This document shows positions 3,077 to 33,194 of a DNA stretch of 33,194 bases, one piece after another (positions within the stretch are counted from its first letter, which is position 1; every line of letters starts with the position of its first letter). Location: NCBI GenBank assembly GCA_009928745.1, contig SACC01000001.1:1-33194 (forward strand), read 5' to 3'. Both the position numbers and the translations under genes were made by a program. The stretch is from Clostridia bacterium. Lineage in GTDB: Bacteria > Bacillota > Clostridia > Christensenellales > CAG-1252. Under the pieces are notes generated by a model. It was not told the origin of the DNA, ran no database searches, and saw only the letters and a list, made by a program, of their open reading frames with translations.

Positions 3077-3087
3077 AAAATATTATC

Positions 3088-3119
3088 CTTCCCCCTCCTC
3101 AAGCTTGAAGAGGGGAAAG
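3088..3119 (-). promoter_or_regulatory. Strand-specific 13-bp RNA hairpin between the giant ORF stop and the 604-aa gene start; its 3' arm contains the SD-like purine run
   Basis: Minus-strand RNA reads CUUUCCCCUCUUC-AAGCUU-GAGGAGGGGGAAG. All 13 positions pair: 11 Watson-Crick plus 2 G.U. On the plus strand the same two positions would be C-A mismatches, so the structure is complete only in the minus-sense transcript. It starts 6 nt after stop TAG 3128-3126. The 3' arm is followed by GAUAAUAUUUU and then UUG 3076. Confidence 0.6.
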
Positions 3120-3125
3120 AAATTA

Positions 3126-12100: not shown

Positions 12101-12200
12101 GGGTTATCTTTGCATATACGCTTAAATCATAGGTTCTTGCTTCGCGGTAAAGCGTTCTGCTATAGGTTGTACCGTCTTCCAAAGTTACCGTAGCCGTTGA
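3126..12200 (-). other. Giant ORF region IV (aa ~7000-10019): array of diverged Ig-like beta-sandwich repeats, one ~170-aa helical insert, and a distinct C-terminal end
   Basis: Repeated domain-end signature: W/F...Y.GG.G.y.v.a.IG......Q...v.V.V..R.I. Examples: KITWNIDALGTSAQGTNGETVYLQGYIGNAICSTVKVIIEPFVI (~10950-11100), IAWEGIENIVYSTGGGTYMVTASIGEGILKQELEVTVYINRA (~7270-7400), KINYGGGAGKLVASFGSAEEGLYAGIQTYSIPIVYVNRTI (~5940-6075), MFWRYSGGSGEVEVSIGSGNAYQKMVYPVKILSRKV (~5510-5625). Domain starts often read LP..(a/v).V, as in LPNRYFATF, LPTRATVTG and LPSTLGAVISI. This resembles Big-type bacterial Ig-like domains. The helical insert is at ~9290-9800. Confidence 0.5.
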
Positions 12201-15200
12201 TGATAAAGTTTGGTCAGTTAGTAAGTCTTGATAAGGCTTCAGCGGACTGGACGGTAAATCCATGGTAGAGAATATATTATAGCTTACCTGGAAAGGCAGT
12301 ACATGAGCAATCAGCAAGGAAGCCTCTTCAAGAACGGCGCCCACCTGCTCGCCTACAGTCTTAAGCAGACCGCCAATCAAAGGAATAATGGATAAGGTCG
12401 TAGGACTATAAACCAACAAGGCAATAAGGTCGTTTACGCCTATTCTTTCTCCCAAAATATCTACAGCTATATTTTTGAGATTAGACAGCGCGAATTCCTG
12501 CAATAAATAATGCACAAGCCCTGCGCCTTCTTTAGCAAGAGCGCTTTGAGCCGCTTGCATATAAGCTCCCTTTTCCTGATAAATATAATTATATATCTTT
12601 ATATCGTCTTCTTCGTTATATCTGCCGCGATAGCGTTTTACAAACTTGTCAAGCAATTCGCCCTCGCCCTTTTCTGCTAACTCCTCGTCGGTGTACTGGG
12701 TAAGGTCAAAATCTTCCTCTTCGGTATATGCTCCCAAACTTATATCGGATGCCGACACAGTTTGTCCCATAGTTACTCCGGTTATACCCAACATTCCAAA
12801 GAACATATTCTGAACAGAAAGTAACAAATTGGTTATCATATTGGAGTCTATCCAAGCTTCAATATAGGTATAAGTGTTATATCTATCGGCAATATGGCTG
12901 CCTTCATAGACTAAATTGCTGGTGTCATCCAAATAAGAGTAGTCATATTGCTGTTCGCCGTTGTCGCCGTCGTCATGAGGCTCGCTGTCTATTATGTCCG
13001 CACCCAAACGAATACGGAGTTTTTGTATCATAGAGGCGCTTTCAGTTACTGTTTCCGACCAATGCTTTGGACGTTTGGTAAGATTTATCTCTACGTTGTA
13101 ACTTGCTGTTCTGTCGTCAGAAACGCTCACTATCTCGGCTATTCCCATTGTCGATGTAGTATGGGAAGCATCTAAGCTATCGCCGATAACGGTACCGCCC
13201 TCGGTCAAATTAAAGTTCTGATAAACTTTGGAACGCAATTTGAATATATAGTTGCCGCCCACTAAGAATTCAGGCGCAGTGAAGCTGAATTTACCTGCCT
13301 CGTCTACGTTTATACTATAGTTTTCCGGTTCCAAATCGTAGAAATCCGTCACTCCTATTGTATGTTCGTTTAGTGAAATCCAAAATTCAAAATCACTGGA
13401 AGACGGTACGACATATTCTCCAATCTCGCTGTCATAATAACGTACGTAGCCAATAAAAGTAACGCTTGTAACTTCTACTTTGCTGAATATTACATCTATT
13501 TGAAGTGTGCTTCCATCGCTTGCTGAGGCTATATAGGTGTCAAGTAAATTAATATCTATACTTACTCTGCTGCCTCCGATTGTATAAACAAATCCTTCAA
13601 ACTTATAGCCCGATAGCTTGCCAAGCATAGAGTGATAAGATTTTGCCAAATTCGTATAATAATCTCTCAAATCGGTATATTCGTCAACGGTAACAGAATA
13701 GTCGCCTTTAGTTGCCGTTGTCAAACTGCTTACCGCACGGGTTAGTCCGCCGTCTATAATAATACTAGCTCCGCCGAAAGCCGATAGATTGGTAATCTCA
13801 CTCATGCTCTGGTCGGGATTTATCATATAGTAGGTCTTTCCGCTTAATGTGATTGTTTTCTTTCTTTCTACATTTGCCTTAGCCAAAACCTGCGAGCAAT
13901 TAATAGCCGCGCTTGTTTCTTTGGGTACAATCAAGAGGTCATTTTCCGAATAGGAGGTATAGCCTTCTTTATAGATAGTTACCGTGCTTCTGTCATTAAG
14001 AGCGTAATAGAAGGCGCCAACTTTTCTATAAATTATATTATTGTAAACAAAGCCCGCTTCCGCTTCTGGATCAACGTCATAATTGTTATTGAGATATTTT
14101 TCCACGCGGGAAACTTCTTGCTTTCCAGTAATATGGTCGGTTATGGGTAATTCTAAGAAGTAATAATAACCGTCCTTATCTGTAGTCGCCTTATTAACAA
14201 TTCCGCTGCCAGAGGTTATTTCAACAGTGGCTCCCTCAACCGGGGCTCCGTCGGTATCCTTAATTATTCCGTAGAATCTGCCTGTTTCTCCCGCCGTGTC
14301 GGTATCAGGGAACATGGTGTCCGGGAAGATAACAATCGTGGCAATTGCAATACCCTTACTGATAAAGCCTTCGATATCTCCTTGTAAGAAGCTCTTAACG
14401 TCTAGGTTAATTCCCAAAATACTGATGGAAATGGACATTCCTAAAGTGATAACCAAGGTATGATTTTCCACATGAACGGATATATCCCCTTGCTTATAAG
14501 AAGGAGTTTTAATAGCCGCGTCTATTACGTTATCCATAGACTTGTTAATCTCTAATTTACCACGCGCATAGCGATTCCTGAAGAATTTGGCTTCGTTGGT
14601 ATCGTCCTCAAATATAGCAGTTGCTCCGCTGCGCAAATTGGATATAAGTTTATAGCCGGTCTGTATTATTTGCCACCAGCCAACTGGGTTGCCCATAGCC
14701 GCCGTAGCGATATTAGAAACTATCTGCGCTATTTTTATCAATTTTACTATTTGAATAATGCCTTGAGCTACAGATTCTGCTCCGTCATAGCCGTCATCCT
14801 CATCCGCATAGTTATTAGGTCCGGTTTTGTGAACAGCCGGATACTTAGTAAATACGTCCTTTCTTGTCCAATAATCAGTACGCTTTTCTACATACAAAGT
14901 AAGGTCATCTAGGAAAATGCCGTCAAGTACGCTGTTTACAAGGTTTGCCATGTTCATGGAAATTCCGCCCGAGCTTAAAATGAGTCCATTTACTCCGCCG
15001 TAATCATTTAGACTTTCGGGTAAGGAAATAATATCTGTAAGCTCCTTATCACGGCCGCCTGCGGCTTCTCCCACGCCGTCATTAATCTTAATCTTTAATC
15101 CTTTTTCGGGAATAGACAAGCCGAGTCTATTACCTTGAGAGTCTACCTTTACGCTTAAGCTTAGGTTGTTAAGTCCCTCATAAGTATTCATGCTTATACT

Positions 15201-18200
15201 TATTTTTTCGAAAGCGGGTATATCCATACCAAGCAGAAGCTTAAATACTCCTGCGCTTGGATTAATTGTTATTCCCTTATTGCCCAGTAATATATTAACT
15301 ATCGCCGCGCTCTTTTTGCCGCCATCTGTAGATGTGTTATCGCTACCTGTGCCGCCTATGCCTACCGCCTGAGACAAAGATGTCAACTCTTTGTTATATT
15401 CGTCATCGGTCATGGGGAATTCTTCTCTTATTTCCGAAAGTCCCTCTGAAATAATATCAATAACTTCTTGGTCGCTCATCTTGCCAAATCTACCAGACAA
15501 GTTGTCGCTAATAAGAGAAGCTCTAAGCTCGGCTAGTCTTGATTCCTTTGTTATCTCTTCCTCATAACTTATCTTTCTATGAGAAACAAGTTGCAAAGTT
15601 TTGCCTTCAGCGGTGTCAAAGTTGAGCATTTCGGTCAGTAGGGCGCTGACATCTATACCGTTTGCCCCTGAGAATTCCGAAACAATATCAATTCCGCCCA
15701 GAAGCTTGCTTAAAATGCTGCCTAGGTCAATACCGTTAAGTGAGGTTTTGAATAATCCTAAAGTGCTTAGGTCAACGTATACCGTCTTGTTTACATAATA
15801 AACAGCAAGCATAATATCGTCGTTGTAGTATACTTCCAACACCAATATAGAATTGTTGTAATTAACCAAATCTATTGCTAAGTCGAAGTTAAGAGTAAAC
15901 GTCATCATGGTGTCTTGCATATCAAAGTTAACGGTATCTTCTTCAAGCTCAAGCAGTTTTTCGAGGAATTCCTCCAAATCTTCCACCACTTCGCTCTTCG
16001 TGCCGTCAGGCTTAAGGGTTTGCAAGGTAATATCCAGTTGCAAACTTAGATGCAAGTTCTTTATTTGGTCTATACTGGTGCATTCTTCGGCATCATAATC
16101 ATTTACTATAGTCATATCTACAACCGAAGATAAGTTGTTTTTCTTGACCAGGTGAGAATAGCTCTTTCTGATATTATAACGGATTGAGAACTGTTTGCTT
16201 TCGTCCATAACAAGCTGAATACCGGACACTTCGGAAACTCCGTCACCGTCACTATCCACACGGCCTATCTTCAAATAGCTGAACATAGGCAGATTCAAAA
16301 TAGCGGCTGGCAAGGTGCCTTTCTTCAATATCTCTTCCCTTTCTTCATCGGTTAGAGGACCGTTCTCTTCCTCGGCTTTCTCTAGCGCGCTTCTGGTTAG
16401 TATGGTATCTAAGTTTCCAAGCAGCGCCATTAACAAGCCGCCGGTTATTGCTATGCTTACTTCGTCATAATCATAAATAAACAGAAGCATATTTTGTCCG
16501 AACTCCATATCGGCTATGGTGTTATATCTCTGCGCTCTCTCTTCTGCCTCGCTTATATCGTTGGATATGCTTGAAGCATTTTGAGGCTCAATTACCTCAT
16601 CTTGTTCGGGCGCAAAACCACTTGCCAAATCAGACAAAAGCCCTTTCACAATACTGCCTAAATCCACGCCTGATAGGCTTAATAGTGAATATCCTAATCC
16701 GCGCAAATCAATATATACCGTTCCGCCTCCGGCCGTTCCGATAAAAGTAATGCTTAGTATTCTCTTTGTAACATTGCCGTTTCCGTCGCCATAGCCTATA
16801 TCCAGCTCCAGTCTCATATTGCTGATATCGCTAAAATCAATGTAAGTGCGAAGAGCAAAAGTAAGCTCTATGTTAAGGCTGTCTTCACTGCTAAGTATAT
16901 TTAGACCTAGACCTCTTATTATGCTGTTGGATAACTGTGACATATTAAGTATGGTGTTAAAGTCGTCATTAACCAGCAATGAGCTGTTGACCTCGGCAAC
17001 CCATACGTAATCGGCAATATCCTGATAGTTGGCAAACTTCGTATAAATAGCCTCTCCAAAGAAATTGCTCTTTTGTCCGAAGCTGATATTGACATTGCTT
17101 ATGCTGAAAGAGTAGTTTATTTTGGAATCGTTGATAACATTATCGTTTGTATCCTTGATAGAAGCGTCTACCGGCACAGTAATACTTAGGCTGTTATTAA
17201 TTAAATCAATTTCCAGCTGAATATTTCCGAATTCGTCAAAGTTGAAGTTGAAGAACGAGGACATTATAGCCTGAATTATTGCAGAAGAAAATTTAATACC
17301 CAAAGAGCCTTTGCCGAAAGTAATACTTTCTACAATTTTACCCCAGTCAAGGTTGGAGAACATACTTTCTTCCTCTTCCGGCTGTCCGCCCTCATTCTCG
17401 TCCTCGGCATATAACAACTGACTGTACAGATAAGAACTGTAGCTTGCTCCGTCTATTTCATAAACTGTATCAGACTTCAGTATGTCAAAGAACAATTGAA
17501 CGAAGTTAATACCCAAGAAGTCATAGCCTGTCTTAGGGGTAAGCATAAGTTTGTCATGCTCGGATTCTCCGCAGTCGAAGTAGAATTTCGGGTCAAGTAT
17601 TCCTTCTCCCTCGCCGTCATGGTTGAGCAGTCCTCCCACAAAATAGATATTGGCGAAGTTTTCCCCGCTTAAATTATACATTCTTATGCTAAAATCAAAG
17701 GCTTCTTGCTCTATGTCAATATCCAGCGCAATGTCAATTCTGATAAGCCCTTTTGCATTTCGTAAAAATCTTAATTGGAAATAAGTATCCATTTCTTGAA
17801 CGTCGAATAATTTGCTCCAGTCAAGTATGGTTTTTAATACGTCGCTTTCCAAATAGATGCTAAGCGATGCGGTAACGCGCGCGCCGATTATTTCCCTAAG
17901 AACACTTATTAAATCAGCGCCCTCTTCGATATCGGTACCTAATTCATAGAGGTCGTCAAAGAAGCCGTTGTCATAATCGCCCTTGATTCCGTTAAATAAC
18001 GCATTGAAGGTATCAATATTGGTGCTTATCAAAGTATCGTTCAGCAAGGTCAAATTGACGTCATAGCCGACGGTTTCGCTGTCTTCAGGGGAGTTCTTGT
18101 GTAAATTAAGGTTTAGTGAGAAGTCGTCACTGTAGTCTATGCCCAAATAACCCGTGGTCATAATAAGGTTAAGCAGGTCCTTCATATCGCCGGTCAGACT

Positions 18201-27200: not shown

Positions 27201-30200
27201 TTCTCTCTTTTGAATAATATTATGATTTTCATCCTCATAATTTACCCAAACTTTCTTGGTAAGCTGATTGTCTTCAAACTTAATGCCGGCTTCGTTAAAT
27301 TTTGCGCTTATATATAGATTGGCAACTTCGGCATCTACGCTGACTATGGAGTTGTCATAGAGAAGACCGAGCCTTATTTGACCTTGCTCGTGAGCTGCTT
27401 CTACTATCAATTGGGGCAAATTAGAATATGCTTCTTCGTAGTACCTATTAATCTTATCGGTCTGAGAATCATCTATATCCTCTCTATACCATATTTGTGC
27501 GCCTTCTTCTGTAAGAACGTCGCTTAATGCAACCATGATACTGTTTGATGCGTCTTTCCTCGGTTTGCCTTCGCTGTCGGTTAGTATGGTGTAAGTTTGT
27601 TCTTTGCGTAAAATAAATTTATAATCACCGTTAAGGGCGGCGGTTATTTCTTCTTTGTAGTACGTCCAAGCGGTATACTTATACTCGTTACCCGTCAATT
27701 CTTTTTGTGCGTTTGCAACATAAGTTAACAAACTGTCATTTAGATAAGCCTCGGCTTTCTCTAAGCTAAAACCATCGGATGCAACAAGCATATCCCATGC
27801 GTAAGCCTTCCATATGGTGGTAACAGACTCATTAAAGCTTCTATAATAATTTTCTTCAAAGATAAATACATCCCCGTCTATTTGGTACTGTCCTGCAGGG
27901 TCTTTGGCAATATTATTGATAGCCTTCATTTTATCGGTAATATTACGGTATTCACCTTCTATATTACCTTTTATTTCCAACCAAGACTTGCTCTTTGCGT
28001 CAAGTTCCAAACTTCCGTTGGCTGAGTAATGTCTTAAATAAATAGCGTTATATTCAGCCTTATCGTCTTCCGACCACATATAATTCTTTGTAAAATACTC
28101 AAATGCTAACTTTTGGATATTAAGCAGGCGATTTGCCGCGGGAATATCGGGAAGCGCCGCTACTGCGCTTGTTGCGCTCAAATACACATCGCTTAAAGCC
28201 GTCAGCTTGGTATATACGTCTTCCAAATAAGCTTCCAAAGCCTTACCCTTTGCAAAATAAAGGGTATATTCCATTGACATTGCCGAGGTTTCGGCATCAA
28301 TGGCATCGTTGTCGTTCTGTTTATCTTTCAGCTCGCTTATTTCATCGGAAATCAGCTTCTTATATAAATCCCATGCTTGTATCTTCTTTTCTTTTGTTGT
28401 ACCCGGTGCGGTCTGCGTTTCCAAAATAATACCCGCTCTCGTGTATTCCTCATCGGAAAGACTTTCCAAAAGAGCATCCCACGCGCGCGACTTATCATTA
28501 TAGTTTTCTTCCAATACCTCGTCCATTAGGGTAAGAATTACGTCTTTTTTGTACTGCTCGTCTTGAAGCTGTCCAATGATTATTTCTTTTACTAACTGCT
28601 TAAATGCGCGATTGTTCAAACTCTTAACGTCGTTGAATGCCTCGTTAAGCAATTTCACCAAAACGTTGGCGGTAGCGGTAATGGTAAAGCCGTAAGTATT
28701 GCCGATAACGCCGCTGATAAAGTCCTCTAAGGGAGTTTCGGTAATTGTTCCGGGAGCTGCCGAAGCAAGACCGGAATTATTTGACAACTCAAGATTTTTA
28801 TTAACGGCATATTTTAGATACAATGCATATTGCATATAATCGTAATCCGTTGCCATAGAGGTATTAACCACGGGAGCGGCGGGACTTTCTCCCTCTTCCT
28901 CTGTGTTATTGCCAAGTAATTTGCCTAAGTTGTCCATAACTTCTTTGGCGGTATTTTGGAAGTCTACTATTTTAATTCTTCCTACGTTAAATGCCGATAA
29001 ATCCAAATAAAGGGTCAAAAACTCGTCGATTCCGTCGGTTTCTTTGACCAAATAGACTCCTATAATCAGCGCTTCGCTATAATATCCTGCTTCAACAGAA
29101 GTATTATAAAGCTCCAAATAAGCTTCTATGCCCGACGCGCTAAGAAGACCGAGAATATCTAAGGAAAGCTCGGGATTTTCTAGTTTCGCCGCGTTATAGG
29201 CGGAAATTGTCCCGACTAGCTGCATCAAATTAGCTTTTAATTCCAATCTGAAGGTAACGTTGGCGTATACAGATTGTATTACGTTAAGTATAACGTCTAA
29301 TGCAAAGCTGTCGTCTTCAAGTAGAGCCCTGAGCAAATCTCCAAAATTGATACTCGTCATATCCATTTCGGTTTCTGCGGTGTCCTCGCCCTCTGCTCCT
29401 AAATTCAACTGTCCTTCAAAAAATACCTTAAAGTCCGAAGTCCAATCCTTATCTATTATTGTATAGTAATCAACATATTTACCGTTTTGCAAAATTTTCT
29501 CTCTAATCGACAAGGATAACGGGTCGGTAAGCGATAACTTAGGATATTCTATGCTAAGACCAAGATTAAACAAGCCCTCTAACTGCAGGTCTACTCCCAC
29601 AAGGTTTTCACCGAGAGCATTGATCGTTAGATTAGGAGTATATCTATTGAAATATCCTTCGATATCTATGCCAAAAGTAGCTAGCAAGGAATACAGAGCG
29701 GCTCCTGTTACTTCTAGCAAAATAACTGAAGTGTTTGCGCCCTCTCTTTGGGTGCTTATGCTGAGTATAATTTCCTTAGCAATGGCATTTGCCGCGGCGT
29801 TATTTAGTCCCGCTACATCATTTCCTGCCGCATCTGAGGGTTCTGTCTCCCCGCCGCCAGTTATCAAATCTCCTAAGTGTATGCCGAACGCTTCGCTTAA
29901 AGCAATAATAATTGCGCTGACATTGTGTAGCTTAATAGGTTCAACGCCCAAGAACTTTAAGGAAATATAAACGTCTGCAACACCGTCCGCGCCTACTACT
30001 ATATATAGTGATAATACATTGCCAAGATAGTAGTCGCCTGCTAGTCCGTACATTTCGTCCCAGAACTTACCATTTCTTTCGGCTTCGGAAAGGTCGGAGT
30101 AGAAAGTAAAGAACTCTCCCTGCTCCAATTCCATCATTTTTTGATAGCAATAATATCCGTCGTTAATAACAAGTTCGTCTATATATTGAGTGCTTCCCGG

Positions 30201-33185
30201 AGTGGGATTTTCCTGAAGAAGTCTGTTCTTCATGGCCTTCCATGCAAGGTCCTTATTATAATTAAACTCGGCAAGTATATTTTGCATATACTCCCTTCTT
30301 ATACTAAGTCCATCATACAATACCTCTTGATTATATTTCGAAGTCAAATTGAGGTATAGCTCCACGTTCTTCAGGTCTTTTAGGGTAGTTAAATTTACAT
30401 TAGCGCTGATATTAAAGTATGTCGCTTGCGAAAATACTTCATCTATTGCCACGTCTAACTGCATTCCTATTTCAGGGTCGCGGTTATCCAGCCAATAATT
30501 AGTAAACATCTTGACAGCGTAGTCAAAATTCCAATTGGTGGCGACATCGGACAGTTCAAAAGAGGCTTTACCTCCCCAGCTTAAGCCAACGGTTGTAAAC
30601 TCTTCTACTTCTGCCCAATCTACGTTGTTTATATCGTTAGCGTAATCAATAACGGTATCGGTAAAGGATATATCAATATTATGCAAAGTAATACCCATTT
30701 CCGTTCTATGATCTTCAAATGTGGATACTCTGCCTTCTTCGTCAAGATAAACGACCGCTGTTACTCCCAAATCTCCTGTAAGATTAAGGTTAAGCCTGAC
30801 TCCGAAATCAATTGCGCTGAGCTCTTCCTCTAGGTCAAGTCCCGCCAGTGCGAAAACCGTTATGAAAGAGGATTTTGTCAACGCTATACCTATATTGCCT
30901 TCCAAGAATAAAAGGTCTATATATGTACGTAAATCTATGCCTTCTGCTTCGGCATTAGAAGCCGCTGCGCCTAAGGCGCGAGTATATGCGGCGTTTAATG
31001 TCGCCGCGGAAGCCGGCTCTTGCTCGGGTTCTTCTTCTACGTCGATACCCACAAACTGTCTTAAAGCTTTGGTAAGCGAGACTAGGAATGTAGAATCAAA
31101 CACCTCTGTTATTCCTGTAACAACACTATTTACGTTGCGCAAAACAACGTCGCCGATGTTGAATATATTGGTGGAAACATATACCTCTCCGGTAAGCTTG
31201 GAAGCATTATCGTCAATATTACTTCCGTCGTATATTAAGGTTAATACCTTTGTTTCTCCGTCATTAAGCTTGTTTTGAGTTAAGGTGATTTTGAACTTAC
31301 TCTTATAGAAATTGCTGAATGCAATCCAAGCCTCAACCTTTATATTTAGACTGTCGTTCATTTCTCCAAAGAATTGGAGAAGTATGCTCGTACCCATATC
31401 GTTTAGGTCGATAAGAACAGAACCGCTTACAAGTAAATCCCAAGCAACTGCCGAGAAAATAACGTCTCCGGGAACTGCGTTTGCATAGTCCTCTCTTTCA
31501 TCCTTTTTTTCTTTTATCTCATTTTCCGCAGCAATAAAACGTTCGTTCATTTCACTTCTTTGAGCATCTGTCAAACTGTCTTTATTGTAATATTCCGACC
31601 ACGCCAAAGCTTTGAGAGCATTTTCCGTCATAGAAGTACCTCTGTTGGCTTCTACTATTTGCTCATAATGTGCTTTTAGATCGGCATTCCTAAATTCGGA
31701 ATTGCTGAACAAAGAACTAATGGCATCGGTCAAATCGTAGTCATTACGGTTGGTTGTGTTGCCGTCAGACATGGAGTTCTTAATAAACAACGCCGCTTCC
31801 ACCGAAACATATATAGCGTCGGGAACGCCGTCCGTTGCTCCTTCGGGAAGATAGGTGTTGTTACTCGATACTCTATAATTAGGACGCTTTGCAGGGTCAA
31901 CGCTTACACTTATATTACCTACGCTTAGGTCTATATGGTATACGCTTGCTAAGCCCAAGGATAAAGTTACGTCCAAACCGTTATTCATATCCAAGTCAAG
32001 TTCCAAACTGTCTATTGTGATAAAGTCGGTAATCTTGGCAAACCCAGCCATGTTAAGTACAACTCTGATTGCCGCTTCGGCCAGTTTAACCGAAACTTTA
32101 CTGTAAGCATATAATATTTCTAAAGAAATCTCGGTATTATTTTCAATTAAAGTGCTGGCATGGTTAATTGTATAACCTTCGTATCCGCTCTGCCTGGGAC
32201 TGAACGCATCGGTAACTTCCTGTAAAGTCGCCGGCGAAGAAGAATTTGCCGCATAAGAGGGATTATTTATTACATTGCCGTCGGCATCGTAATAGGTAAG
32301 CGATGCGGCATTTATGGGATTTATCACGGCATAAGCAGCCAATACTTGCCTTATTCGATAGTATGTTACCGCTTTTATTTCCTGCTCAGTTACATTCCTT
32401 GAAGTATATCTAGTTTCAATTTCTTTATTTAAGTTTTCTTCAAAAGCTTGTTCATACCTTATTTGATAATCAGCGCTTTGGCGAATAGCCGATGAAGTTG
32501 CATTCTTATATATACCTGCGTACAAGTTGTCTTTGTCGGCTCTAAGCTCGTCAATAACTACTTGCGCGATACGGGTTTGCAGAGTAGAGTAAGCGGTGGA
32601 ATTTACATAAACGGCTTTAAGATAATTTTTAATTTCCGCAACGGTGGCCACTATTTCGCTATCCATTAAAGCCTTAATTTCTCCAAGAATACCAGTCTGT
32701 TTATAGGTGTTTTCCCATATTTTTTCGTACCTTGCGGCTATTTCTTTATAGTAACTGTAAGCATTTGCCTGCAATTCGTTTAGTAGCATTTTTTCGTCAA
32801 ACTCATAACTTTCGTCATCTTCGGGAATTCCGCTGTCTGCTCTGTCTTTTGCCTCAGCCAGGTCATAAACACTTATTTTTAACACGTTTCCATTGCCTTG
32901 CTGCATTGGATTGATAAACGCCACAAGAATGTTATTGTTGTAAATATTTATTACTCCGCTATCGTTAATTTCGAAAATCCTTGCGGTGTTTTTCAGCGTC
33001 ATTTCATTTTCAAAATCGGTAAAATTGAAATTGTTGCTTACGTTATTGTAGTTATAAAGATAAATAAAACCATCATTACCCACCAAATACTTATAGTTGG
33101 TAATAGGATAAGATCTGGAATAATCTTTGTAAAAATTGTCAAAGAAATAACTGAGAGTCTGCTGTTTCATAACAGAATCCATCAA
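3126..33185 (-). CDS. Giant mosaic protein of 10,019 aa with unknown function; probable cell-surface fibre or adhesin-like protein; N-terminus possibly incomplete
   Basis: The 30,060-nt frame has no stop in AT-rich DNA and ends at TAG 3128-3126. The largest competing ORF anywhere inside it is 217 aa. Composition is coherent and domain-like segments occur along the whole length. The track start is TTG 33185 followed by ATG 33182-33180. The three in-frame codons upstream to the window edge (AAG CGT AAT) contain no stop. Confidence 0.9.
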   Translation of the reverse strand: MMDSVMKQQTLSYFFDNFYKDYSRSYPITNYKYLVGNDGFIYLYNYNNVSNNFNFTDFENEMTLKNTARIFEINDSGVINIYNNNILVAFINPMQQGNGNVLKISVYDLAEAKDRADSGIPEDDESYEFDEKMLLNELQANAYSYYKEIAARYEKIWENTYKQTGILGEIKALMDSEIVATVAEIKNYLKAVYVNSTAYSTLQTRIAQVVIDELRADKDNLYAGIYKNATSSAIRQSADYQIRYEQAFEENLNKEIETRYTSRNVTEQEIKAVTYYRIRQVLAAYAVINPINAASLTYYDADGNVINNPSYAANSSSPATLQEVTDAFSPRQSGYEGYTINHASTLIENNTEISLEILYAYSKVSVKLAEAAIRVVLNMAGFAKITDFITIDSLELDLDMNNGLDVTLSLGLASVYHIDLSVGNISVSVDPAKRPNYRVSSNNTYLPEGATDGVPDAIYVSVEAALFIKNSMSDGNTTNRNDYDLTDAISSLFSNSEFRNADLKAHYEQIVEANRGTSMTENALKALAWSEYYNKDSLTDAQRSEMNERFIAAENEIKEKKDEREDYANAVPGDVIFSAVAWDLLVSGSVLIDLNDMGTSILLQFFGEMNDSLNIKVEAWIAFSNFYKSKFKITLTQNKLNDGETKVLTLIYDGSNIDDNASKLTGEVYVSTNIFNIGDVVLRNVNSVVTGITEVFDSTFLVSLTKALRQFVGIDVEEEPEQEPASAATLNAAYTRALGAAASNAEAEGIDLRTYIDLLFLEGNIGIALTKSSFITVFALAGLDLEEELSAIDFGVRLNLNLTGDLGVTAVVYLDEEGRVSTFEDHRTEMGITLHNIDISFTDTVIDYANDINNVDWAEVEEFTTVGLSWGGKASFELSDVATNWNFDYAVKMFTNYWLDNRDPEIGMQLDVAIDEVFSQATYFNISANVNLTTLKDLKNVELYLNLTSKYNQEVLYDGLSIRREYMQNILAEFNYNKDLAWKAMKNRLLQENPTPGSTQYIDELVINDGYYCYQKMMELEQGEFFTFYSDLSEAERNGKFWDEMYGLAGDYYLGNVLSLYIVVGADGVADVYISLKFLGVEPIKLHNVSAIIIALSEAFGIHLGDLITGGGETEPSDAAGNDVAGLNNAAANAIAKEIILSISTQREGANTSVILLEVTGAALYSLLATFGIDIEGYFNRYTPNLTINALGENLVGVDLQLEGLFNLGLSIEYPKLSLTDPLSLSIREKILQNGKYVDYYTIIDKDWTSDFKVFFEGQLNLGAEGEDTAETEMDMTSINFGDLLRALLEDDSFALDVILNVIQSVYANVTFRLELKANLMQLVGTISAYNAAKLENPELSLDILGLLSASGIEAYLELYNTSVEAGYYSEALIIGVYLVKETDGIDEFLTLYLDLSAFNVGRIKIVDFQNTAKEVMDNLGKLLGNNTEEEGESPAAPVVNTSMATDYDYMQYALYLKYAVNKNLELSNNSGLASAAPGTITETPLEDFISGVIGNTYGFTITATANVLVKLLNEAFNDVKSLNNRAFKQLVKEIIIGQLQDEQYKKDVILTLMDEVLEENYNDKSRAWDALLESLSDEEYTRAGIILETQTAPGTTKEKKIQAWDLYKKLISDEISELKDKQNDNDAIDAETSAMSMEYTLYFAKGKALEAYLEDVYTKLTALSDVYLSATSAVAALPDIPAANRLLNIQKLAFEYFTKNYMWSEDDKAEYNAIYLRHYSANGSLELDAKSKSWLEIKGNIEGEYRNITDKMKAINNIAKDPAGQYQIDGDVFIFEENYYRSFNESVTTIWKAYAWDMLVASDGFSLEKAEAYLNDSLLTYVANAQKELTGNEYKYTAWTYYKEEITAALNGDYKFILRKEQTYTILTDSEGKPRKDASNSIMVALSDVLTEEGAQIWYREDIDDSQTDKINRYYEEAYSNLPQLIVEAAHEQGQIRLGLLYDNSIVSVDAEVANLYISAKFNEAGIKFEDNQLTKKVWVNYEDENHNIIQKREAITIAEYIQQVQTDENGEFAVFDKNFGYVYAALEIDFGWDLEENTEYDFTTLINTLLSGMNFNLEVQGQGIDLSPVLAILNDISNYYRIIMEARFNLFDLFDGNLSTTDLSITLYALDSEGNIKQRDGVNDVVLQFVLGSEVDPTTGEETNYIYLNAERFNIQRIYIKNAVEYIRGLFGTVFASNGAYPLGIDIDEEASVSKIVVAAAMAAKIANASDGENAQVNLDLLKSGLSIQIAANAIYAILGFLNLGGMDNIKSMITQVGEPSVTLDIFSVATYGGEVPGIFTDNDRDLIRVGLRFESVNNKGISTGRGISLNLSIHTIELDLDQEKYITFDEASLEKDENGDPVGYVVVENALPKISISTTLYLEFDLGATEGKDLSKDPVYSLLEQTLSGLITSLAEVLLTLNNTHKITIALDVLADLDFGNGEDNNFLEHLKSGSTLRIGLRIYRTAEGMYFDQNKEWAVITYYNKNLYVDISKLNSDKVYVANIADSLFGAQDSPAAASWESIAKDLRFAANNNVNLGLSANITNDGFYLIVKKAAISALLKMFGFGGFDLFNDAALQIYLKGTEVSENVRSFAFGLQIAMSDDPLNVGTTQMKPVLGITVRLNGLYVGFEASGTSVSGVEEYRELTRIDTIYFKTKIMINLTDEKGIYNLEELLYYILSMTDIDLTAQGFTRQIAPILELINDVDSIVYVDISLTVNIKSILDDLQAKVYLNVLNKSTGEITQIAGISYIRGDLFIDASGLSNNENFYVGKVKITNVMGLISSITGGDTQEAAELRERIAGIENYYNGERPQNIAGATQGIGTLAIIGDVIKGVAINLTQGAIFSLVKYFMGVDLAEKIVVVEEVINSVTTPALSLSIDPSITILIQLDLPSKEIDDADSILMSELLNNEFVYWYQNNVSATSIIYDKVWAVLVENTLLYQNYNLSDAQKLSRVNAWLTDTATDAPAIMSRIRARLTDFSETQAKLFLYDYVAIECYFSEALATTYGFDYSLDNERDINQKNIKLELFYSNYLKEVEWDKVYETITDLEVKNELNVLLATYGSKALAFDACVSLGREAGVSMSEGYNGNTYKKKIDSIRNMFGSGSDSVSYTYLVTNLFRNLYARQSAWFKYLYEQIYYADSAGGIKVYTAKYDELYVYQKALAYERYYEETTDYYQKALMLSAESFARAKYSKASEIEIKAYAYDKFKQDLLLGSNAINNALIEDDVNILKYVVWNNLAKAEFYSDEKLALLGVNRDDVKIIGNILTTTSKTLQSYNLSKGATMSAYQEGGFTYDLVFNSISALITAAGSYTIDATMSIRAIKAAIVRKLFLEESIDYSLILEGVTQSSSEYDLSVAYNTLISRYYTKLTTLLQDFSEATAYINSYGADFSLKQLSFDELINLEMESIYKPIDLPASEFAINNGATQETDPKAELNWTSNDLFKLVIAWLVLSLDTTDEVLQGYISSANSYVSNVNNIGNPITLSDNYGGDGYLADCYIAVRAFAYVLKRYDISTFSNISVINEIAQGNYSNVPMEAIKALLEKYKGVDLEHNISIATALKITSDICDTFDETKEELNTQNRAAIDVAVKAVLLKSQVVDMNITGLNQSITDGYLFDIRSYSFYNAYLAFNQYVEIKGLTAAVVEAQNYAASYFGSYDNAIEEVISFGYLLKSLVGEEFTLLNQIYNNFALGNYSCLTEAVWLSSMSDYVGDSTNIAEVTAAVNRISKLFGYLSNEQYIKKYAWDKWMRYSSTLERITELNNILKSCLFERLYSDIQEIINSTVISSANSVIDSTLTSLVAKSKEYVISNIDTYLDFINEFREDAETLYSDILDESLIIVDINEYASANVTLELEKKINAENKAFLLDNLFLRSANLELWEEYYDAASYNSFHTWYYGVDGYNDRLEVLLDANFEAVSENIFSVLPARLSSINLSDNYYSNIVNLINDSIGMWSTILMPVIVDNERQPLLDMISDLNNAKTTLDEIEKVKYRIEDDEYGNPQYSEEYGQALATIEASLGYCPTVEDVNTVTDIDIAFGYAAKLLAYIKAVYQAANNYSEASPEKTAENIRINNLALATYGVVLIPDYCNNYRNILETQLFAKLSKLKYITEELSIVNSASVQDQLNAGGKTYYQAIYYIYGRMENILMLNAEVSKKDYRELWYELIEKCESYEFSLSEEHSLTMAQSKQLFLTTAKELFQDGKIYKITDIESFIEGVDNNSGEYASLKQVVLNDSSMQESMLLALKELLITNLTDSGIVKMAAAYREQFALSFTGGLAPKISNFNEWVDNYDLRYYEIMAYNMDTIVSALADNIVYNSQLDVIAMLSGIVTNYDGFVLALRNHLYNIYTVEFGGEEITGNYDLSDVVSAIDLMISQGGFAVPTAYKETVNFCRSISNIIVAAEDGGLGVLTNEDKRELFASIIALSYNATTADFENENVLLNVELISILNSVWASYKAVVNTYFMEYISELGLFDEFAALAYTNILTLSEDLAEIVAASAALSTTNGRTEDYLRMRDMIETYFNGNYTVSGINTAFRAIFNTYSLGGSIYYIQASNAYANALASDFDDLLALLIANDSDEIALHNYISTLDVSTAKAKAEALLLVLDYIANTVNNVTLSLDSKELYDDIVIAVNVLGTTKDSLDLSIWNNYFADYIGLYPQVAEKLTLKANLGQGYSAEQILEMLSFVEKSQYLKEYLLLEEAASITELMSVTNSGLIAERAFTMIYDEAMARKNNRALLSLGIGIIGEDSSLLVDIKSNYINESGETVSSIKDVLTDEEKAEYTEYADLTLRINVNASFSFSYNQGDLNITDILDLISLPIDLDLDISFLESSMIYVTIQGQIGINFAALFSGNSSEVAESVVGELMLTYYIIEHDVNGENVRFEQVILHIWIYGGNIYGQAEIFDSKLNVAVPVNLGNIVLGMFGANEDEEINALNSFIMQSYHGYTDEEAQNAMTPFEQMFAVVSNAESTLGEAIEALIRISSKETALIITIDMLVEIVKVFVGQDSLTGDMKDLLNLIMTTGYLGIDYSDDFSLNLNLHKNSPEDSETVGYDVNLTLLNDTLISTNIDTFNALFNGIKGDYDNGFFDDLYELGTDIEEGADLISVLREIIGARVTASLSIYLESDVLKTILDWSKLFDVQEMDTYFQLRFLRNAKGLIRIDIALDIDIEQEAFDFSIRMYNLSGENFANIYFVGGLLNHDGEGEGILDPKFYFDCGESEHDKLMLTPKTGYDFLGINFVQLFFDILKSDTVYEIDGASYSSYLYSQLLYAEDENEGGQPEEEESMFSNLDWGKIVESITFGKGSLGIKFSSAIIQAIMSSFFNFNFDEFGNIQLEIDLINNSLSITVPVDASIKDTNDNVINDSKINYSFSISNVNISFGQKSNFFGEAIYTKFANYQDIADYVWVAEVNSSLLVNDDFNTILNMSQLSNSIIRGLGLNILSSEDSLNIELTFALRTYIDFSDISNMRLELDIGYGDGNGNVTKRILSITFIGTAGGGTVYIDLRGLGYSLLSLSGVDLGSIVKGLLSDLASGFAPEQDEVIEPQNASSISNDISEAEERAQRYNTIADMEFGQNMLLFIYDYDEVSIAITGGLLMALLGNLDTILTRSALEKAEEENGPLTDEEREEILKKGTLPAAILNLPMFSYLKIGRVDSDGDGVSEVSGIQLVMDESKQFSIRYNIRKSYSHLVKKNNLSSVVDMTIVNDYDAEECTSIDQIKNLHLSLQLDITLQTLKPDGTKSEVVEDLEEFLEKLLELEEDTVNFDMQDTMMTFTLNFDLAIDLVNYNNSILVLEVYYNDDIMLAVYYVNKTVYVDLSTLGLFKTSLNGIDLGSILSKLLGGIDIVSEFSGANGIDVSALLTEMLNFDTAEGKTLQLVSHRKISYEEEITKESRLAELRASLISDNLSGRFGKMSDQEVIDIISEGLSEIREEFPMTDDEYNKELTSLSQAVGIGGTGSDNTSTDGGKKSAAIVNILLGNKGITINPSAGVFKLLLGMDIPAFEKISISMNTYEGLNNLSLSVKVDSQGNRLGLSIPEKGLKIKINDGVGEAAGGRDKELTDIISLPESLNDYGGVNGLILSSGGISMNMANLVNSVLDGIFLDDLTLYVEKRTDYWTRKDVFTKYPAVHKTGPNNYADEDDGYDGAESVAQGIIQIVKLIKIAQIVSNIATAAMGNPVGWWQIIQTGYKLISNLRSGATAIFEDDTNEAKFFRNRYARGKLEINKSMDNVIDAAIKTPSYKQGDISVHVENHTLVITLGMSISISILGINLDVKSFLQGDIEGFISKGIAIATIVIFPDTMFPDTDTAGETGRFYGIIKDTDGAPVEGATVEITSGSGIVNKATTDKDGYYYFLELPITDHITGKQEVSRVEKYLNNNYDVDPEAEAGFVYNNIIYRKVGAFYYALNDRSTVTIYKEGYTSYSENDLLIVPKETSAAINCSQVLAKANVERKKTITLSGKTYYMINPDQSMSEITNLSAFGGASIIIDGGLTRAVSSLTTATKGDYSVTVDEYTDLRDYYTNLAKSYHSMLGKLSGYKFEGFVYTIGGSRVSIDINLLDTYIASASDGSTLQIDVIFSKVEVTSVTFIGYVRYYDSEIGEYVVPSSSDFEFWISLNEHTIGVTDFYDLEPENYSINVDEAGKFSFTAPEFLVGGNYIFKLRSKVYQNFNLTEGGTVIGDSLDASHTTSTMGIAEIVSVSDDRTASYNVEINLTKRPKHWSETVTESASMIQKLRIRLGADIIDSEPHDDGDNGEQQYDYSYLDDTSNLVYEGSHIADRYNTYTYIEAWIDSNMITNLLLSVQNMFFGMLGITGVTMGQTVSASDISLGAYTEEEDFDLTQYTDEELAEKGEGELLDKFVKRYRGRYNEEDDIKIYNYIYQEKGAYMQAAQSALAKEGAGLVHYLLQEFALSNLKNIAVDILGERIGVNDLIALLVYSPTTLSIIPLIGGLLKTVGEQVGAVLEEASLLIAHVLPFQVSYNIFSTMDLPSSPLKPYQDLLTDQTLSSTATVTLEDGTTYSRTLYREARTYDLSVYAKITLNSDSEGGYIDRISLFINGSSFSKNSEKIALREENEMPSYNAMMQGDWDYAYWQKNGRVGSFYSVVKENAYTINMTGLEADEDPDDYRDRGVQLYYHNVSDNRQELGLPEYETTKTTGQTYEMITNSNSETIERMYFEERIESDDVTKRSYTYKTDATATYEIKSCDIETKTIVSAGVEDTVAKVFMEQFMATSNYKSYAISDTYYLHPLTGEKVIYSRVFIYDVNNNPKEDIYQEVDIDLNGMDIRQVADTTFNGEFWHISLEPVNAVWTKEIRTLPTKIVFHDPFDLTDFTVEGGTWAYSDGYLGVRRNNDSSISIIDALPNRYFATFTDGSSKGTQGMKITWNIDALGTSAQGTNGETVYLQGYIGNAICSTVKVIIEPFVIDVDQAKAQIISDISSIVINPRDFDAEEFLASLPLVFNYNYSNTDNEGNVREKTYIFNDLKWSLDYQTVNSIRRFTSLKYNSPFADEQPYIDLSFRSFGYDSEGNELSSNTEFTDVKIPLTVKNYELVKVESEVENTVGGIVNDATVPSGYHGVLTINPLYNNNPLTTVTEITSFDSVTVKCGDVVQNWEIIEGSLKLLKLNGKTLRDYKSLSTKAEDYAISYDITDGTGFVQTVKILVKILSSDIQSGASYFYDGETKIYIENNKLITPYDTGSDLSPIDTINDSYMKRLGLSEEIYVVYTSGYFEKAVLGQYTQANKTYVSYNEATGKLEANGVVAIMGSGFSYSIPYMSYNQNQDATIYASIGQNGYSKLDMDLILTEIMLSNLSLRYSLNNAKEKAYDSIYEKLTKFEKLELSAILNEKENNKARAWDAWYEKYSDAANDTYNNNTTLYLDTVLLEAKLSYTTLSYTAAKSLAYEKLIADNSNINQSNNKISVDALNEVLEEMRTEHFGASNTSLQAYTWEKWYNDYSRKSLSINRSVERRVAKSVESKSVSGSDLSEITMEDLGSYINVGFDGVEKIEIIVDPITGESYNKTVLDLKKTQIIWKVDLEHINDNLSYNGTILYAEVLLKDDLFGDQLIRGVVIQVKQVNIRELYLNYNAQISINTYNEATIDNLLRLYYNDDKVNTREYNFGLVIEDGTTAGTRFGIASDEVGSRENFNNAIWELDTISENYDGTEFRKVRWEYVYDTNGNNDYTDDGISYHNLPNSGAHSIKVLVRSKNYDSITQAGNRWSRWIIIDLTKVVKYNNGSYLVTNIQKNTVISSIESATSDGQNIPIENIEGSIRLAIDPAVIKLGDEQNIIFSVRYVDGTTGSLKGVIDLSNNSEFYSKATVNSSITFGTKFNNRQVISVVLRNTAIRKFSSISSIVYERFNSGLGQWEIVNFNSQIATAYDDINAKLPTRATVTGVRNGVSESEVLSVSFRGIETYDYTGKKTNGQNPRATAVIGDATFGYIYRELELIIGEETIVNVISGISEDIYLDPYGAENIDWLIANNTSCLVYTRYYNNNGEVRYTTKEVTVRVDESDIDLISYAQNDFEQATYKVSFNIGVSVPNGIYGEFDIRSEKIVDVTLWSRKVAGLYIKDGEKVVELSGDIYNRVDFDAYTYWVAYGSGSDLTQINTIAWEGIENIVYSTGGGTYMVTASIGEGILKQELEVTVYINRAQVNMLKVVEGQTGVNYQQLSYNVNTKEFNNLVIEPFEGFVGLPSTLGAVISIDYQGNVREKEVPVEWDYTQFASTMTLAGGVFDKESTNNVVYVKLYDAELDNEGNEISRRILQIIPISVVVRDRTIQKYQVSYNGVDFIDLDSLLYNDSVNELKATNELLLNPYTMRNALNNDTRYNSPDNMYSEDFTSAHFTYFRSVRIITSGADNYTRTYNLGADNYTIYDTATNYATKTTDLYTGRRVTVKLKVSESMNATIGSTLSCAKEAMDINIAPLKKGGTLNDKFDENIKVRILNMKYAVGGGLNKDIYYIDQYGLIKSSESSLIKFENSVVYSSKVTNATIYGADKEDYYRLDNGERVEIVSYTFSEINYDGTNINNKFFEVSSVNNSGAILSAELRRSGGKINYGGGAGKLVASFGSAEEGLYAGIQTYSIPIVYVNRTISDFGFNASNAPNFKNITLSSGGTTTTVKGFEFDPFVKYVNSDLGFNAATQQGYLAGGQYDTVLKFERTEFDVLFGSLPGYVEGGKYYINYNLSTEQGENKLGVKFYDADMFWRYSGGSGEVEVSIGSGNAYQKMVYPVKILSRKVDIERGFYGFTSNILKNETIGYDTTISVYDYIGQSNIESKLIAKHFSSSTTLVFGVYFEDFNDPIYYTLNQIAESSGNYILSVEETNGTDNRGNAYNNAVQMSFTLDTTQGLNYKGGKAKFNMVIPGYGLGAKGQQNAQIMFNLTEEYIVFANPVNDSGFEIDYDTYFRNILNDLVSDESADRYKNAIVDGAIEYDDSINNWRIIDPYYFIQLGGLKMPDDVMIYTTTKQGYEQYNALMAVPHNSLAINNFLATCKKYKTEALWTGANQGKITVYFNDTERKTSFTMSLDDQLYTKKFAVDPWLFFDTEGAVDAFISTIAYGPQDIILLPKVSSLTEENNPDFYIEVVYNEENGHPVYDSSYGYRVHYKVNGIAKETFVTNINGGGTYRNNYNRWYFGAVAFGDKAAQYATITLGGKGGQTFRWKLSNTSTRSWINSNVPGMLSLPKGTTYALPENLIQYFGMNTSYNLFSTDTNDFIPLEYYKLEKPVKSERFDTVAGGELSQREVVANNFSPASLQNVDFGLDENENQLVNEYQIGILYWRAVGRRAYPAASTAIQGETIISGYDSSIVHFIDPISTGLVASIFKKDETGARSFYISDAISNKHYLYVPNSDENVDENEVSYKNSGVMLAKGYRYDDDAKLTATSNYYWQAGAQSAQSIPTLYVTQGTMFNIRNLPLFQMNYIFSVKTTTDLPLFGGINLGTDYTMFNSSAATYLPWYNSNVYRMNGQTRIPIGDFTAINTMAQIGTRYLVETTFSITMGTTTDAETIYDGVYSQQGMTPKTFVIYTYIYIASK
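12360..12840 (-). other. Two hydrophobic segments inside the giant ORF; candidate membrane-interacting or buried helices
   Basis: MITNLLLSVQNMFFGMLGITGVTMG lies at 12781-12840 and LIALLVYSPTTLSIIPLIGGLL at ~12360-12430. Both are 22-25 residues with no charged side chains, separated by an acidic helical stretch. No TM predictor was run. Confidence 0.3.
13210..14282 (-). other. Three tandem prealbumin-fold / carboxypeptidase-regulatory-like (CarboxypepD_reg, Cna-B-like) domains within the giant ORF (from aa 6302)
   Basis: The first copy is clear: GRFYGIIKDTDGAPVEGATVEITSGSGIVNKATTDKDGYYYFLELP...TVTIYKEGYTSY (14282 down to ~13935). It fits the G.v.D..G.P..GA.V......g....TD..G.Y.f..l...Y.v...k.GY pattern. 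Two weaker copies follow: TITLSGKTYYM...GGASIIIDGG...KGDYSVTV (~13690-13870) and VTFIGYVRYYDSEIGEYV...DEAGKFSF...GGNYIFKL (~13210-13480). Confidence 0.6.
14880..19019 (-). other. Giant ORF region III (aa ~4723-6100): four more copies of the ~300-aa beta-rich module
   Basis: Signatures: NIYGQAEIFDSKLNVAVPV (18481-18540), VGGLLNHDGEGEGILDPKFY (17581-17640), TVYIDLRGLGYSLL (16681-16740), TVYVDLSTLGLFKTSLNGIDLG (15741-15800). Linkers: ENEGGQPEEEES (17341-17400), GFAPEQDEVIEPQ (16561-16620). Copies 9 and 10 are the most alike: TVYIDLRGLGYSLLSLSGVDLGSIVKGLLSDL versus TVYVDLSTLGLFKTSLNGIDLGSILSKLLGGI. Confidence 0.6.
19020..24559 (-). other. Giant ORF region II (aa ~2876-4722): ~1,840-aa block with helix-favouring composition and no recognisable domain
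   Basis: The block runs from ...LDLPSKEIDDADSILMSELLNNEFVYWYQ (24481-24560) to ...LIAERAFTMIYDEAMARKNN (19021-19080). It is rich in A, L, E, K, Y, N and S. Runs of Gly or Pro are almost absent, as are the alternating beta patterns seen in the flanking regions. The secondary-structure call is by eye only. Confidence 0.5.
24560..33185 (-). other. Giant ORF region I (aa ~1-2875): six diverged copies of a ~300-aa beta-rich module, with helical inserts
   Basis: Module signatures, each verified by back-translation: GEVYVSTNIFNIGDVVL (31141-31200), DVYISLKFLGVE (29941-30000), TLYLDLSAFNVG (28981-29040), NYIYLNAERFNIQRIYI (26701-26760), NLYVDISKLNSDK (25741-25800), DLFIDASGLSNNENF (24941-24990). Most are followed within ~25-45 aa by an acidic or Pro/Ala linker: EEEPEQEPASAA (~30995-31045), GGGETEPSDAAGN (29821-29870), NNTEEEGESPAAPV (28861-28920), AQDSPAAAS (25681-25720). 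Confidence 0.6.
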
Positions 33186-33194
33186 ATTACGCTT

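Follow-up and report, generated by a model that had tools for sequence, protein, structure and literature searches.

A diverged tandem array of a ~290-residue domain in a giant, putatively lipid-anchored protein of uncultured Clostridia

The window analysed here, 33,194 nucleotides (nt) of contig SACC01000001.1 from a Clostridia bacterium (GCA_009928745.1), is filled over nearly its whole length by one giant open reading frame (ORF) on the minus strand. The N-terminal half of the encoded protein consists of 13 tandem copies of one domain of ~290 amino acids (aa), each followed by an Ala/Pro/Glu-rich linker of ~20-40 residues that is predicted to be disordered. The window contains ten of these in full, positions 4-13 of the 13-module array, and half of a further copy, together spanning aa 276-6105. 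The 9 nt between the first TTG of the ORF and the window edge (nt 33186-33194) hold zero in-frame stops, which leaves the ORF open on its 5' side, and residue 1293 of the homolog P0021 pairs in alignment with giant residue 1, thus ~1,290 residues of the giant lie upstream of the window. As read from the alignment, these comprise a lipoprotein signal peptide, an N-terminal domain and three modules (positions 1-3). On balance the window would therefore encode, from about residue 1,290 on, an extracellular lipoprotein of giant size (>11,000 aa in full), its host being an uncultured clostridial bacterium that is Christensenella-like. The architecture suggests that the module array acts as a membrane-anchored extracellular stalk or spacer, a reading to which we assign a probability of about 0.55. 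Residue i of the giant begins at nt 33185-3(i-1) throughout.

A first-pass annotation, made from the sequence alone, had proposed at least ten highly diverged copies of one module between nt 14880 and 33185, which are giant residues 1-6102, and the motifs it quoted are all found in the translation of the ORF. Comparison of the protein with itself returns very little. Whole-giant self-BLAST gave the identity match alone, since contained high-scoring segment pairs are culled, and windowed BLASTP of the giant against itself gave a best pair at 5489-5525 and 5801-5839 (E 1e-4) with three more at 0.004-0.04. Alignment of overlapping anchor-centred segments with MAFFT was scrambled, and hhalign with thin profiles of 1-4 near-identical sequences found the link between M8 and M9 as the sole one (the copies in the window are numbered M0 to M10, Table 1). 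The nearly empty self-BLAST and the single tie between M8 and M9 would both be in keeping with apparent repeats that arise from composition alone, in a protein of low complexity and rich in beta structure, the copies then being non-homologous.

It is the decoy controls that refute this. An iterative hidden Markov model (HMM), seeded with M8 and M9 and their orthologs, was searched against the giant, three orthologs, and the reversed and window-shuffled copies of these. It recruited M5, M7, M4, M6 and M3 (both spliced) and M0, which entered at E-values between 2e-5 and 9e-3, whilst the composition-matched reversed and shuffled decoys were kept out at every round (best decoy 0.05-1.3). A family HMM made from 205 module copies matches the giant 11 times at E<1e-3 and, at E 0.003, a half module; reversed decoys came no lower than 0.004. 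In a further comparison each of the 13 positions was given one orthologous profile, drawn from the giant and four homologs with 13 modules, and all 78 pairs were aligned with hhalign. The median probability is 89.8%, half of the pairs (39/78) reach at least 90%, and each position is linked to another at 90% or more, in contrast to reversed decoys which reach a maximum of 2.9%. The register is also kept over the 13 positions in independent homologs. A purely compositional origin of the repeats is thus hardly credible. The repeats first proposed are borne out, standing far above chance in each of these three independent approaches, and the profile-profile self-similarity on which that proposal was made to depend is present.

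The copies carry the signature Y/F-x-D/S-L/I-S at aa 659, 1073, 1393, 2148, 2472, 2740, 4885, 5202, 5491 and 5803, successive signatures typically lying 270-330 aa (~800-1,000 nt) apart. The range first given for the array stands in that modules recur through it, but not as an unbroken series: aa 2873-4718 are a helical insertion within M6, and aa 1-275 are an inter-module insert. The half module M10 is a tentative call, its HMM E-value of 0.0029 being near that of the best reversed decoy.

Table 1. Positions in the window of the giant ORF, its module copies and insertions, and the neighbouring gene. E-values of modules are from the family HMM.
Feature	Position (nt)	Strand	Residues (aa)	Remarks
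Giant ORF	3126..33185	(-)	10,019 in the window	open to window edge on 5' side
M0 (position 4)	30972..32360	(-)	276-738	276-520 E 4.5e-10; 544-738 E 5.9e-5; signature Y aa 659; broken by short helical insert near aa 520-545
M1 (position 5)	29745..31073	(-)	705-1147	705-970 E 2.2e-18; 1044-1147 E 0.058 (weak); signature aa 1073; insert aa ~970-1044
M2 (position 6)	28800..29843	(-)	1115-1462	E 8.1e-22; signature TLYLDLSAFNVG aa 1391
M3 (position 7)	26583..28739	(-)	N-part 1483-1520; C-part 1921-2201	Spliced construct fits HMM end to end, E 2.4e-5; C-part alone E 1.3e-7
Helical insertion in M3	~27426-28625	(-)	~1520-1920	~400 aa
M4 (position 8)	25662..26651	(-)	2179-2508	E 3.7e-20; signature NLYVDISKLNSDK aa 2470
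M5 (position 9)	24774..25706	(-)	2494-2804	E 1.1e-25; signature DLFIDASGLS aa 2738
M6 (position 10), split	18303..24797	(-)	N-part 2797-2872; C-part 4719-4961	Spliced construct fits HMM positions 18-247, E 0.0035; C-part E 2.3e-6
Helical insertion in M6	19032..24569	(-)	2873-4718	~1,850 aa; no modules; lineage-specific
M7 (position 11)	17433..18395	(-)	4931-5251	E 7.7e-8; signature aa 4885-5202
M8 (position 12)	16518..17474	(-)	5238-5556	E 4.2e-25; signature TVYIDLRGLGYSLL aa 5489
M9 (position 13)	15567..16589	(-)	5533-5873	E 1.5e-24; signature TVYVDLSTLGLFK aa 5801
Half module M10 (tentative)	14871..15464	(-)	5908-6105	N-terminal half of profile only (HMM positions 41-175)
CarboxypepD_reg beta-sandwich	14142..14270	(-)	6306-6348	PF13620, E 1.2e-7, 32.4 bits (cut-off 32.3)
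MBG_2-domain protein	1262..3076	(-)	604 in all	PF18676, E 1.5e-10; directly downstream of giant gene

The duplications are ancient rather than recent, as had been concluded from the low identity between copies. Paralogous modules within the giant share a mean identity of 17.6% (maximum 24.9%), whereas giant module i pairs best with module i+3 of homologs that have 13 modules, the identity then being 23-36%. The equivalence of module i with module i+3 means that the window begins after the third module. With orthologous modules closer than paralogous ones, the 13-fold array predates the divergence of the family and, on these identities, was built by ancient internal duplication.

The family itself is small. 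A profile of nine window modules, searched against 1.84 billion representative proteins, found 33 protein clusters at E<=1e-3, and 7-10 of these are giants of 5-8 kaa (thousand aa), each with 8-14 matched stretches. Giant homologs of 7-8 kaa (P0002-P0008) can be aligned collinearly along the full window protein at ~25% identity, with P0002, P0003, P0005 and P0008 having 13 contiguous modules each, from residue ~200 to ~4,100, and ~240 module copies are known in the family. The homologs come from Clostridia or Bacillota metagenome-assembled genomes (MAGs), in whose records they are either a 'hypothetical protein' or a 'carboxypeptidase-like regulatory domain-containing protein'. Two MAGs are the closest genomes, L002 (an uncultured Christensenella sp.) and L003 (Bacillota), and identity to the giant in these is 74% and 88% respectively in the query region, falling to 67% and 84% when all of the length they share is counted. 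No description of the family was found in literature searches; the ~290-aa domain is previously undescribed, and the family that carries it is very rare and known from uncultured organisms throughout. Giant repetitive surface proteins as such are already a known kind.

All N-terminally complete homologs open with a lipoprotein signal peptide of the cleavable kind, made up of a K/R-rich n-region and a hydrophobic h-region and followed by a lipobox Cys at residue ~24-28. The strict lipobox pattern [LVI][ASTVI][GAS]C is found in 12 and L/M-F-A-C in 2, which together are every N-terminally complete member, and judged by these N-termini the family members are giant lipoproteins. The window protein is acidic, its regions have 0-0.5% Cys throughout, and a Kyte-Doolittle scan of the giant gave no convincing transmembrane helix, the peaks of 1.7-1.9 being amphipathic module helices. 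The poverty in Cys, the acidity and the lack of a convincing transmembrane segment support an extracellular location, as do the CarboxypepD_reg domain and the conserved MBG_2 neighbour described below.

The order of elements that the first-pass annotation gave for the module was alternating-pattern strands, a short LL..LL helix, strands ending in an aromatic-rich strand with the signature, an L..LLG helix, in most copies an acidic or Pro/Ala linker, and a strand-helix element. This order of six is seen again in the family consensus, of which the first part reads ...yi.L.LseegL.L.Itka-aL..LL.lLGl.dl ... dY ... idLddLLgaLLg ... and the second L.LdLeA.IDL.DLsn.eL.L.Ly....k.lL.IYY.gg..dLYIDLs.LGlpKIkIsGIDL.sLL.gLl, the signature Tyr being by far the most conserved module position (4.0 bits). 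A two-module AlphaFold model, built on an alignment of 24 module pairs that included both orthologs and paralogs, has a mean predicted local distance difference test (pLDDT) score of 61.8 and a predicted template modelling (pTM) score of 0.45, with conserved cores at 70-90 (the core strands of M8 at 74-85 and the core of M9 at 70-90). AlphaFold on M8 with the nine window paralogs alone gave a pLDDT of 48, and the Foldseek matches of that model are meaningless. The module is predicted to run b1-b2-helix (b1 and b2 forming a hairpin), b3-b6, a short Leu-rich helix and b7-b11, and to close with the L..LLG helix; the stretch that comes next has pLDDT <50 and coincides with the linker. This amounts to 11 long antiparallel strands and three helices, with the invariant Tyr (dLYIDLs.LG) on b11. 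The predicted strands are mostly of 5-16 residues and, with short connections, run as a back-to-back meander; conserved strands among b7-b11 have 7-14 residues, and the conserved C-terminal ones 10-14.

It had been stated at the outset that the module could not be assigned to a known domain, and this still holds. Pfam has no module match in the giant (E<=0.1) or in 24 two-module segments (E<=1), an NCBIfam scan gave no match, and an HMM of the module pair gave none among all PDB sequences at E<=10. Foldseek with the predicted structure had no match in the PDB at E<1e-3 and none in BFVD.

With cores at 70-90, linkers below 50 and a pTM of 0.45, the model supports a layout of domains joined by linkers, and the stalk is the role that we favour for such a layout. 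The giant would be fixed by a lipid anchor to the outer side of the cytoplasmic membrane, and its 13 modules and flexible linkers would form a long stalk or spacer, flexible from segment to segment and tens of nanometres in length. This stalk would project a conserved central region and a beta-rich C-terminal region of ~3,000 aa through and past the cell wall, where the projected regions may serve adhesion or surface coating, possibly with the neighbouring MBG-domain surface protein.

Several points weigh against the stalk. The N-terminus of the giant lies outside the window and its own lipobox is unseen, so that the anchor is read from homologs, and the type of envelope of the host is assumed from taxonomy. 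The proposed role as stalk or adhesin comes from architecture alone, with no adhesive domain identified, and apart from one CarboxypepD_reg the C-terminal 3,700 aa are without a Pfam or PDB match. The structure model is only moderately confident, and the modules could be independent beads or one continuous sheet. Finally, the structural leads at the top are open barrels that bind lipid, a hint that the modules may do more than act as spacers.

Those leads are all LolA-like, with LolA3 9tp6 (E 0.05, probability 0.93 and 0.69) and DUF1329 4z48 (probability 0.77) at the top and RseB 2p4b also listed. LolA and LolB structures have a layout of 11 strands and three helices, which the topology of the module resembles, one of its predicted helices lying in the middle loop. 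All Foldseek matches of non-trivial probability belong to the LolA-like fold, and the homologs of the giant are themselves lipid-anchored at the membrane, which is a further tie to lipoprotein biology. It could be that each module is a LolA/LolB/RseB-like open beta-barrel in which a helix plugs a hydrophobic cavity, with the 13 cavities binding or relaying hydrophobic cargo (lipids, lipoprotein acyl chains or glycolipids) from the membrane to the cell surface or a partner cell. We think this unlikely. The Foldseek matches are non-significant (E>=0.05) and their geometry is poor, with a template modelling (TM) score of 0.24 and a root mean square deviation of 6-7 Å over ~120 columns, and the model underlying them is only moderately confident. 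None of the LolA-clan families LolA, LolB, MucB_RseB and DUF1329 of Pfam is matched in the 24 module pairs, even at E<=1, and hhalign of the 205-copy module profile with a LolA profile gives a probability of 0.05%, a weak test as the LolA profile is shallow (effective number of sequences, Neff, of 2). The module is also longer (~290 aa, compared with ~180-200 aa in LolA) and occurs as 13 tandem copies in one polypeptide, and to our knowledge Clostridia have no Lol pathway. The term 'LolA-like' is therefore used of the predicted module as a lead rather than an assignment.

A repeating beta-groove (RBG) of the AsmA/TamB type was the other fold raised by the first-pass annotation. Read as a bridge of the AsmA/TamB/YhdP/VPS13 type, successive modules would form one continuous hydrophobic groove carrying lipids from the membrane, with the acidic or Pro/Ala segments as groove-crossing loops. 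The likeness to AsmA-like proteins, TamB and YhdP, and to VPS13 and ATG2, lies in great length, richness in beta structure, an N-terminal membrane anchor, and repeated antiparallel blocks with disordered loops. The strands of the module are predicted to be long, amphipathic, antiparallel and back to back, its second half has five strands, a helix and a disordered segment, and the array spans ~4,000 aa. An RBG unit resembles that second half. There is nonetheless no Pfam match to AsmA, AsmA_2, TamB/DUF490 or Chorein_N in the giant or in the module pairs, at the thresholds given above, and the module HMM recovered from the 1.84 billion proteins this family of giant lipoproteins alone. No TamB, VPS13, ATG2 or Lpt structure is among the top 50 Foldseek matches, and a pTM of 0.45 beside good per-module pLDDT is contrary to a rigid continuous sheet. 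The ~290-aa period with three helices per unit differs from these proteins, the anchor of the homologs is a lipobox and not a transmembrane helix, and the hosts are Clostridia or Bacillota MAGs rather than classical diderms. We know of no second membrane in Clostridia to which a groove could bridge. The groove is thus unsupported by profile and structure searches, fits poorly with both anchor and hosts, and seems to us distinctly improbable.

The two ideas may be combined, in that the 13 lipid-anchored modules could be open, helix-plugged hydrophobic half-barrels, LolA-like or of a new groove fold, forming a relay or conduit by which lipids or lipid-anchored molecules pass from the cytoplasmic membrane through the wall to the surface or to a partner cell. 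This is a speculative and rather unlikely proposal; if true, an unrelated domain would have given rise to a counterpart of the AsmA/TamB or Lol systems, and should the modules indeed bind lipid, the protein would represent a novel kind of trans-envelope lipid device.

The fold that had been named first, a beta-solenoid fibre, has in its favour the abundance of strands with alternating hydrophobic and polar residues and nothing else. The AlphaFold model has long, back-to-back strands and three helices per module, without a coil periodicity of 18-30 residues, and there is no beta-helix among the top Foldseek matches in the PDB. The predicted pattern of secondary structure contradicts a solenoid, which is rejected as very improbable indeed.

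The favoured stalk has its closest parallels in the giant repetitive surface proteins of Gram-positive bacteria, such as the Ebh, SasG and Rib/alpha-like stalks. Like these, the giant has several thousand residues, is poor in Cys, acidic and apparently extracellular, and would use tandem domains as a stalk to project a distal region. It differs in its anchor, which in the homologs is an N-terminal lipid and not a sortase/LPXTG signal or a C-terminal transmembrane segment. The repeat also differs, being a new ~290-aa domain with ~18% identity between copies instead of near-identical Ig-like or helical repeats, and no known adhesive domain accompanies it.

Giants of >5,000 to >10,000 aa that are known from metagenomes only, and are largely without domain annotation, have been reported elsewhere. 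They include the proteins of >5,000 aa covered by one survey (PMC11573180) and the products of Omnitrophota giant genes (bioRxiv 10.1101/2023.11.21.568195). The window protein differs from these in lineage, which is Clostridia/Christensenellales-like; no mention of Clostridia or lipoproteins was found in PMC11573180, where Firmicutes appear once, in an unrelated context.

What is gained here is the definition of an unannotated domain family, with a consensus, boundaries and ~240 copies, from rare lipoproteins of 7-11 kaa in uncultured Clostridia including Christensenella-like genomes. Genes of this family are labelled in databases as 'hypothetical' or are named after a single 40-residue match to CarboxypepD_reg. 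The module has no solved or curated relative and is a concrete target for structure determination. The putative architecture, with a lipid anchor, a stalk of 13 modules, a conserved core and a beta-rich distal region, may provide a frame for the study of surface biology, adhesion and lipid handling in a poorly cultured group.

The linkers between modules, 147 of which were collected from the family, are 37 aa long in the median, with Ala (1.9x), Pro (1.5x) and Glu (1.3x) over-represented in their composition. Together with the AlphaFold pLDDT of <50 this composition suggests that they are disordered, which was one of the points to be checked. The linkers are also over-rich in the dipeptide N-A, often as P-Q-N-A or L-N-A, which is present in 90 of the 147 compared with ~48 expected from composition (window examples are at aa 715-759, 4925-4970 and 5520-5571). 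This dipeptide may mark a processing site, act as a capping motif or be due to chance.

The array is interrupted in some lineages by large inserts, most homologs being without those of M3 and M6. The site of the M6 insertion is bridged by ~13 residues in P0002, P0003 and P0005, and the insertion is much shorter in L001 and P0001, its long form being common to P0004, L002 and L003. The M3 insertion follows the same pattern, in that P0002, P0003 and P0005 are without it and P0004, L002 and L003 have it in its long form. That large lineage-specific inserts are tolerated in module loops is a better fit to independently folding domains than to one continuous functional groove. A helix motif, x-A-W-[DE]-x-[LWY], was noted at aa 528, 981, 1568, 1604, 1796, 1839, 3729, 7842 and 7935.

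Beyond the array, the best-conserved part of the giant is aa ~6000-7500 (window ~10686-15185), which has 40-46% identity to the most distant ortholog compared with ~30% elsewhere. It has no Pfam, NCBIfam or PDB match apart from the 43-residue CarboxypepD_reg, the sole Pfam match across the giant, and is probably the functional core. Searches of PDB sequences by phmmer with aa 6100-7300 and aa 7300-10019 also gave no match.

That most distant ortholog lies on L001:1-13174 (ENA ERZ18242344, NODE_876, GC content 32%) and is called as three separate genes; P0016, apparently a 498-aa protein of L001, has 31% identity to the giant. Read as a single frame, L001 has four in-frame TAA codons in 4,391 codons, and homology to the giant runs on across them. 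These could reflect a decaying gene, errors in a low-coverage (~5x) assembly, or recoding. A phage or plasmid origin of the giant is unlikely, tblastn against phage and plasmid collections having given no match.

The MBG_2-domain protein encoded downstream of the giant carries a membrane anchor at its N-terminus and a hydrophobic segment at its C-terminus, and its gene is kept 3' of the giant gene in L003 (75% identity) and in L002 (56%). A look-up of this 604-aa sequence gave no record; its reference starts from a TTG codon that may have been translated as Leu. The spacer of 49 nt between the two genes holds a GC-rich hairpin, CCCCTCTTCAAGCTTGAGGAGGGG. Beyond the MBG_2 gene, on the same strand, is the start of a gene for a DAO-family FAD oxidoreductase.

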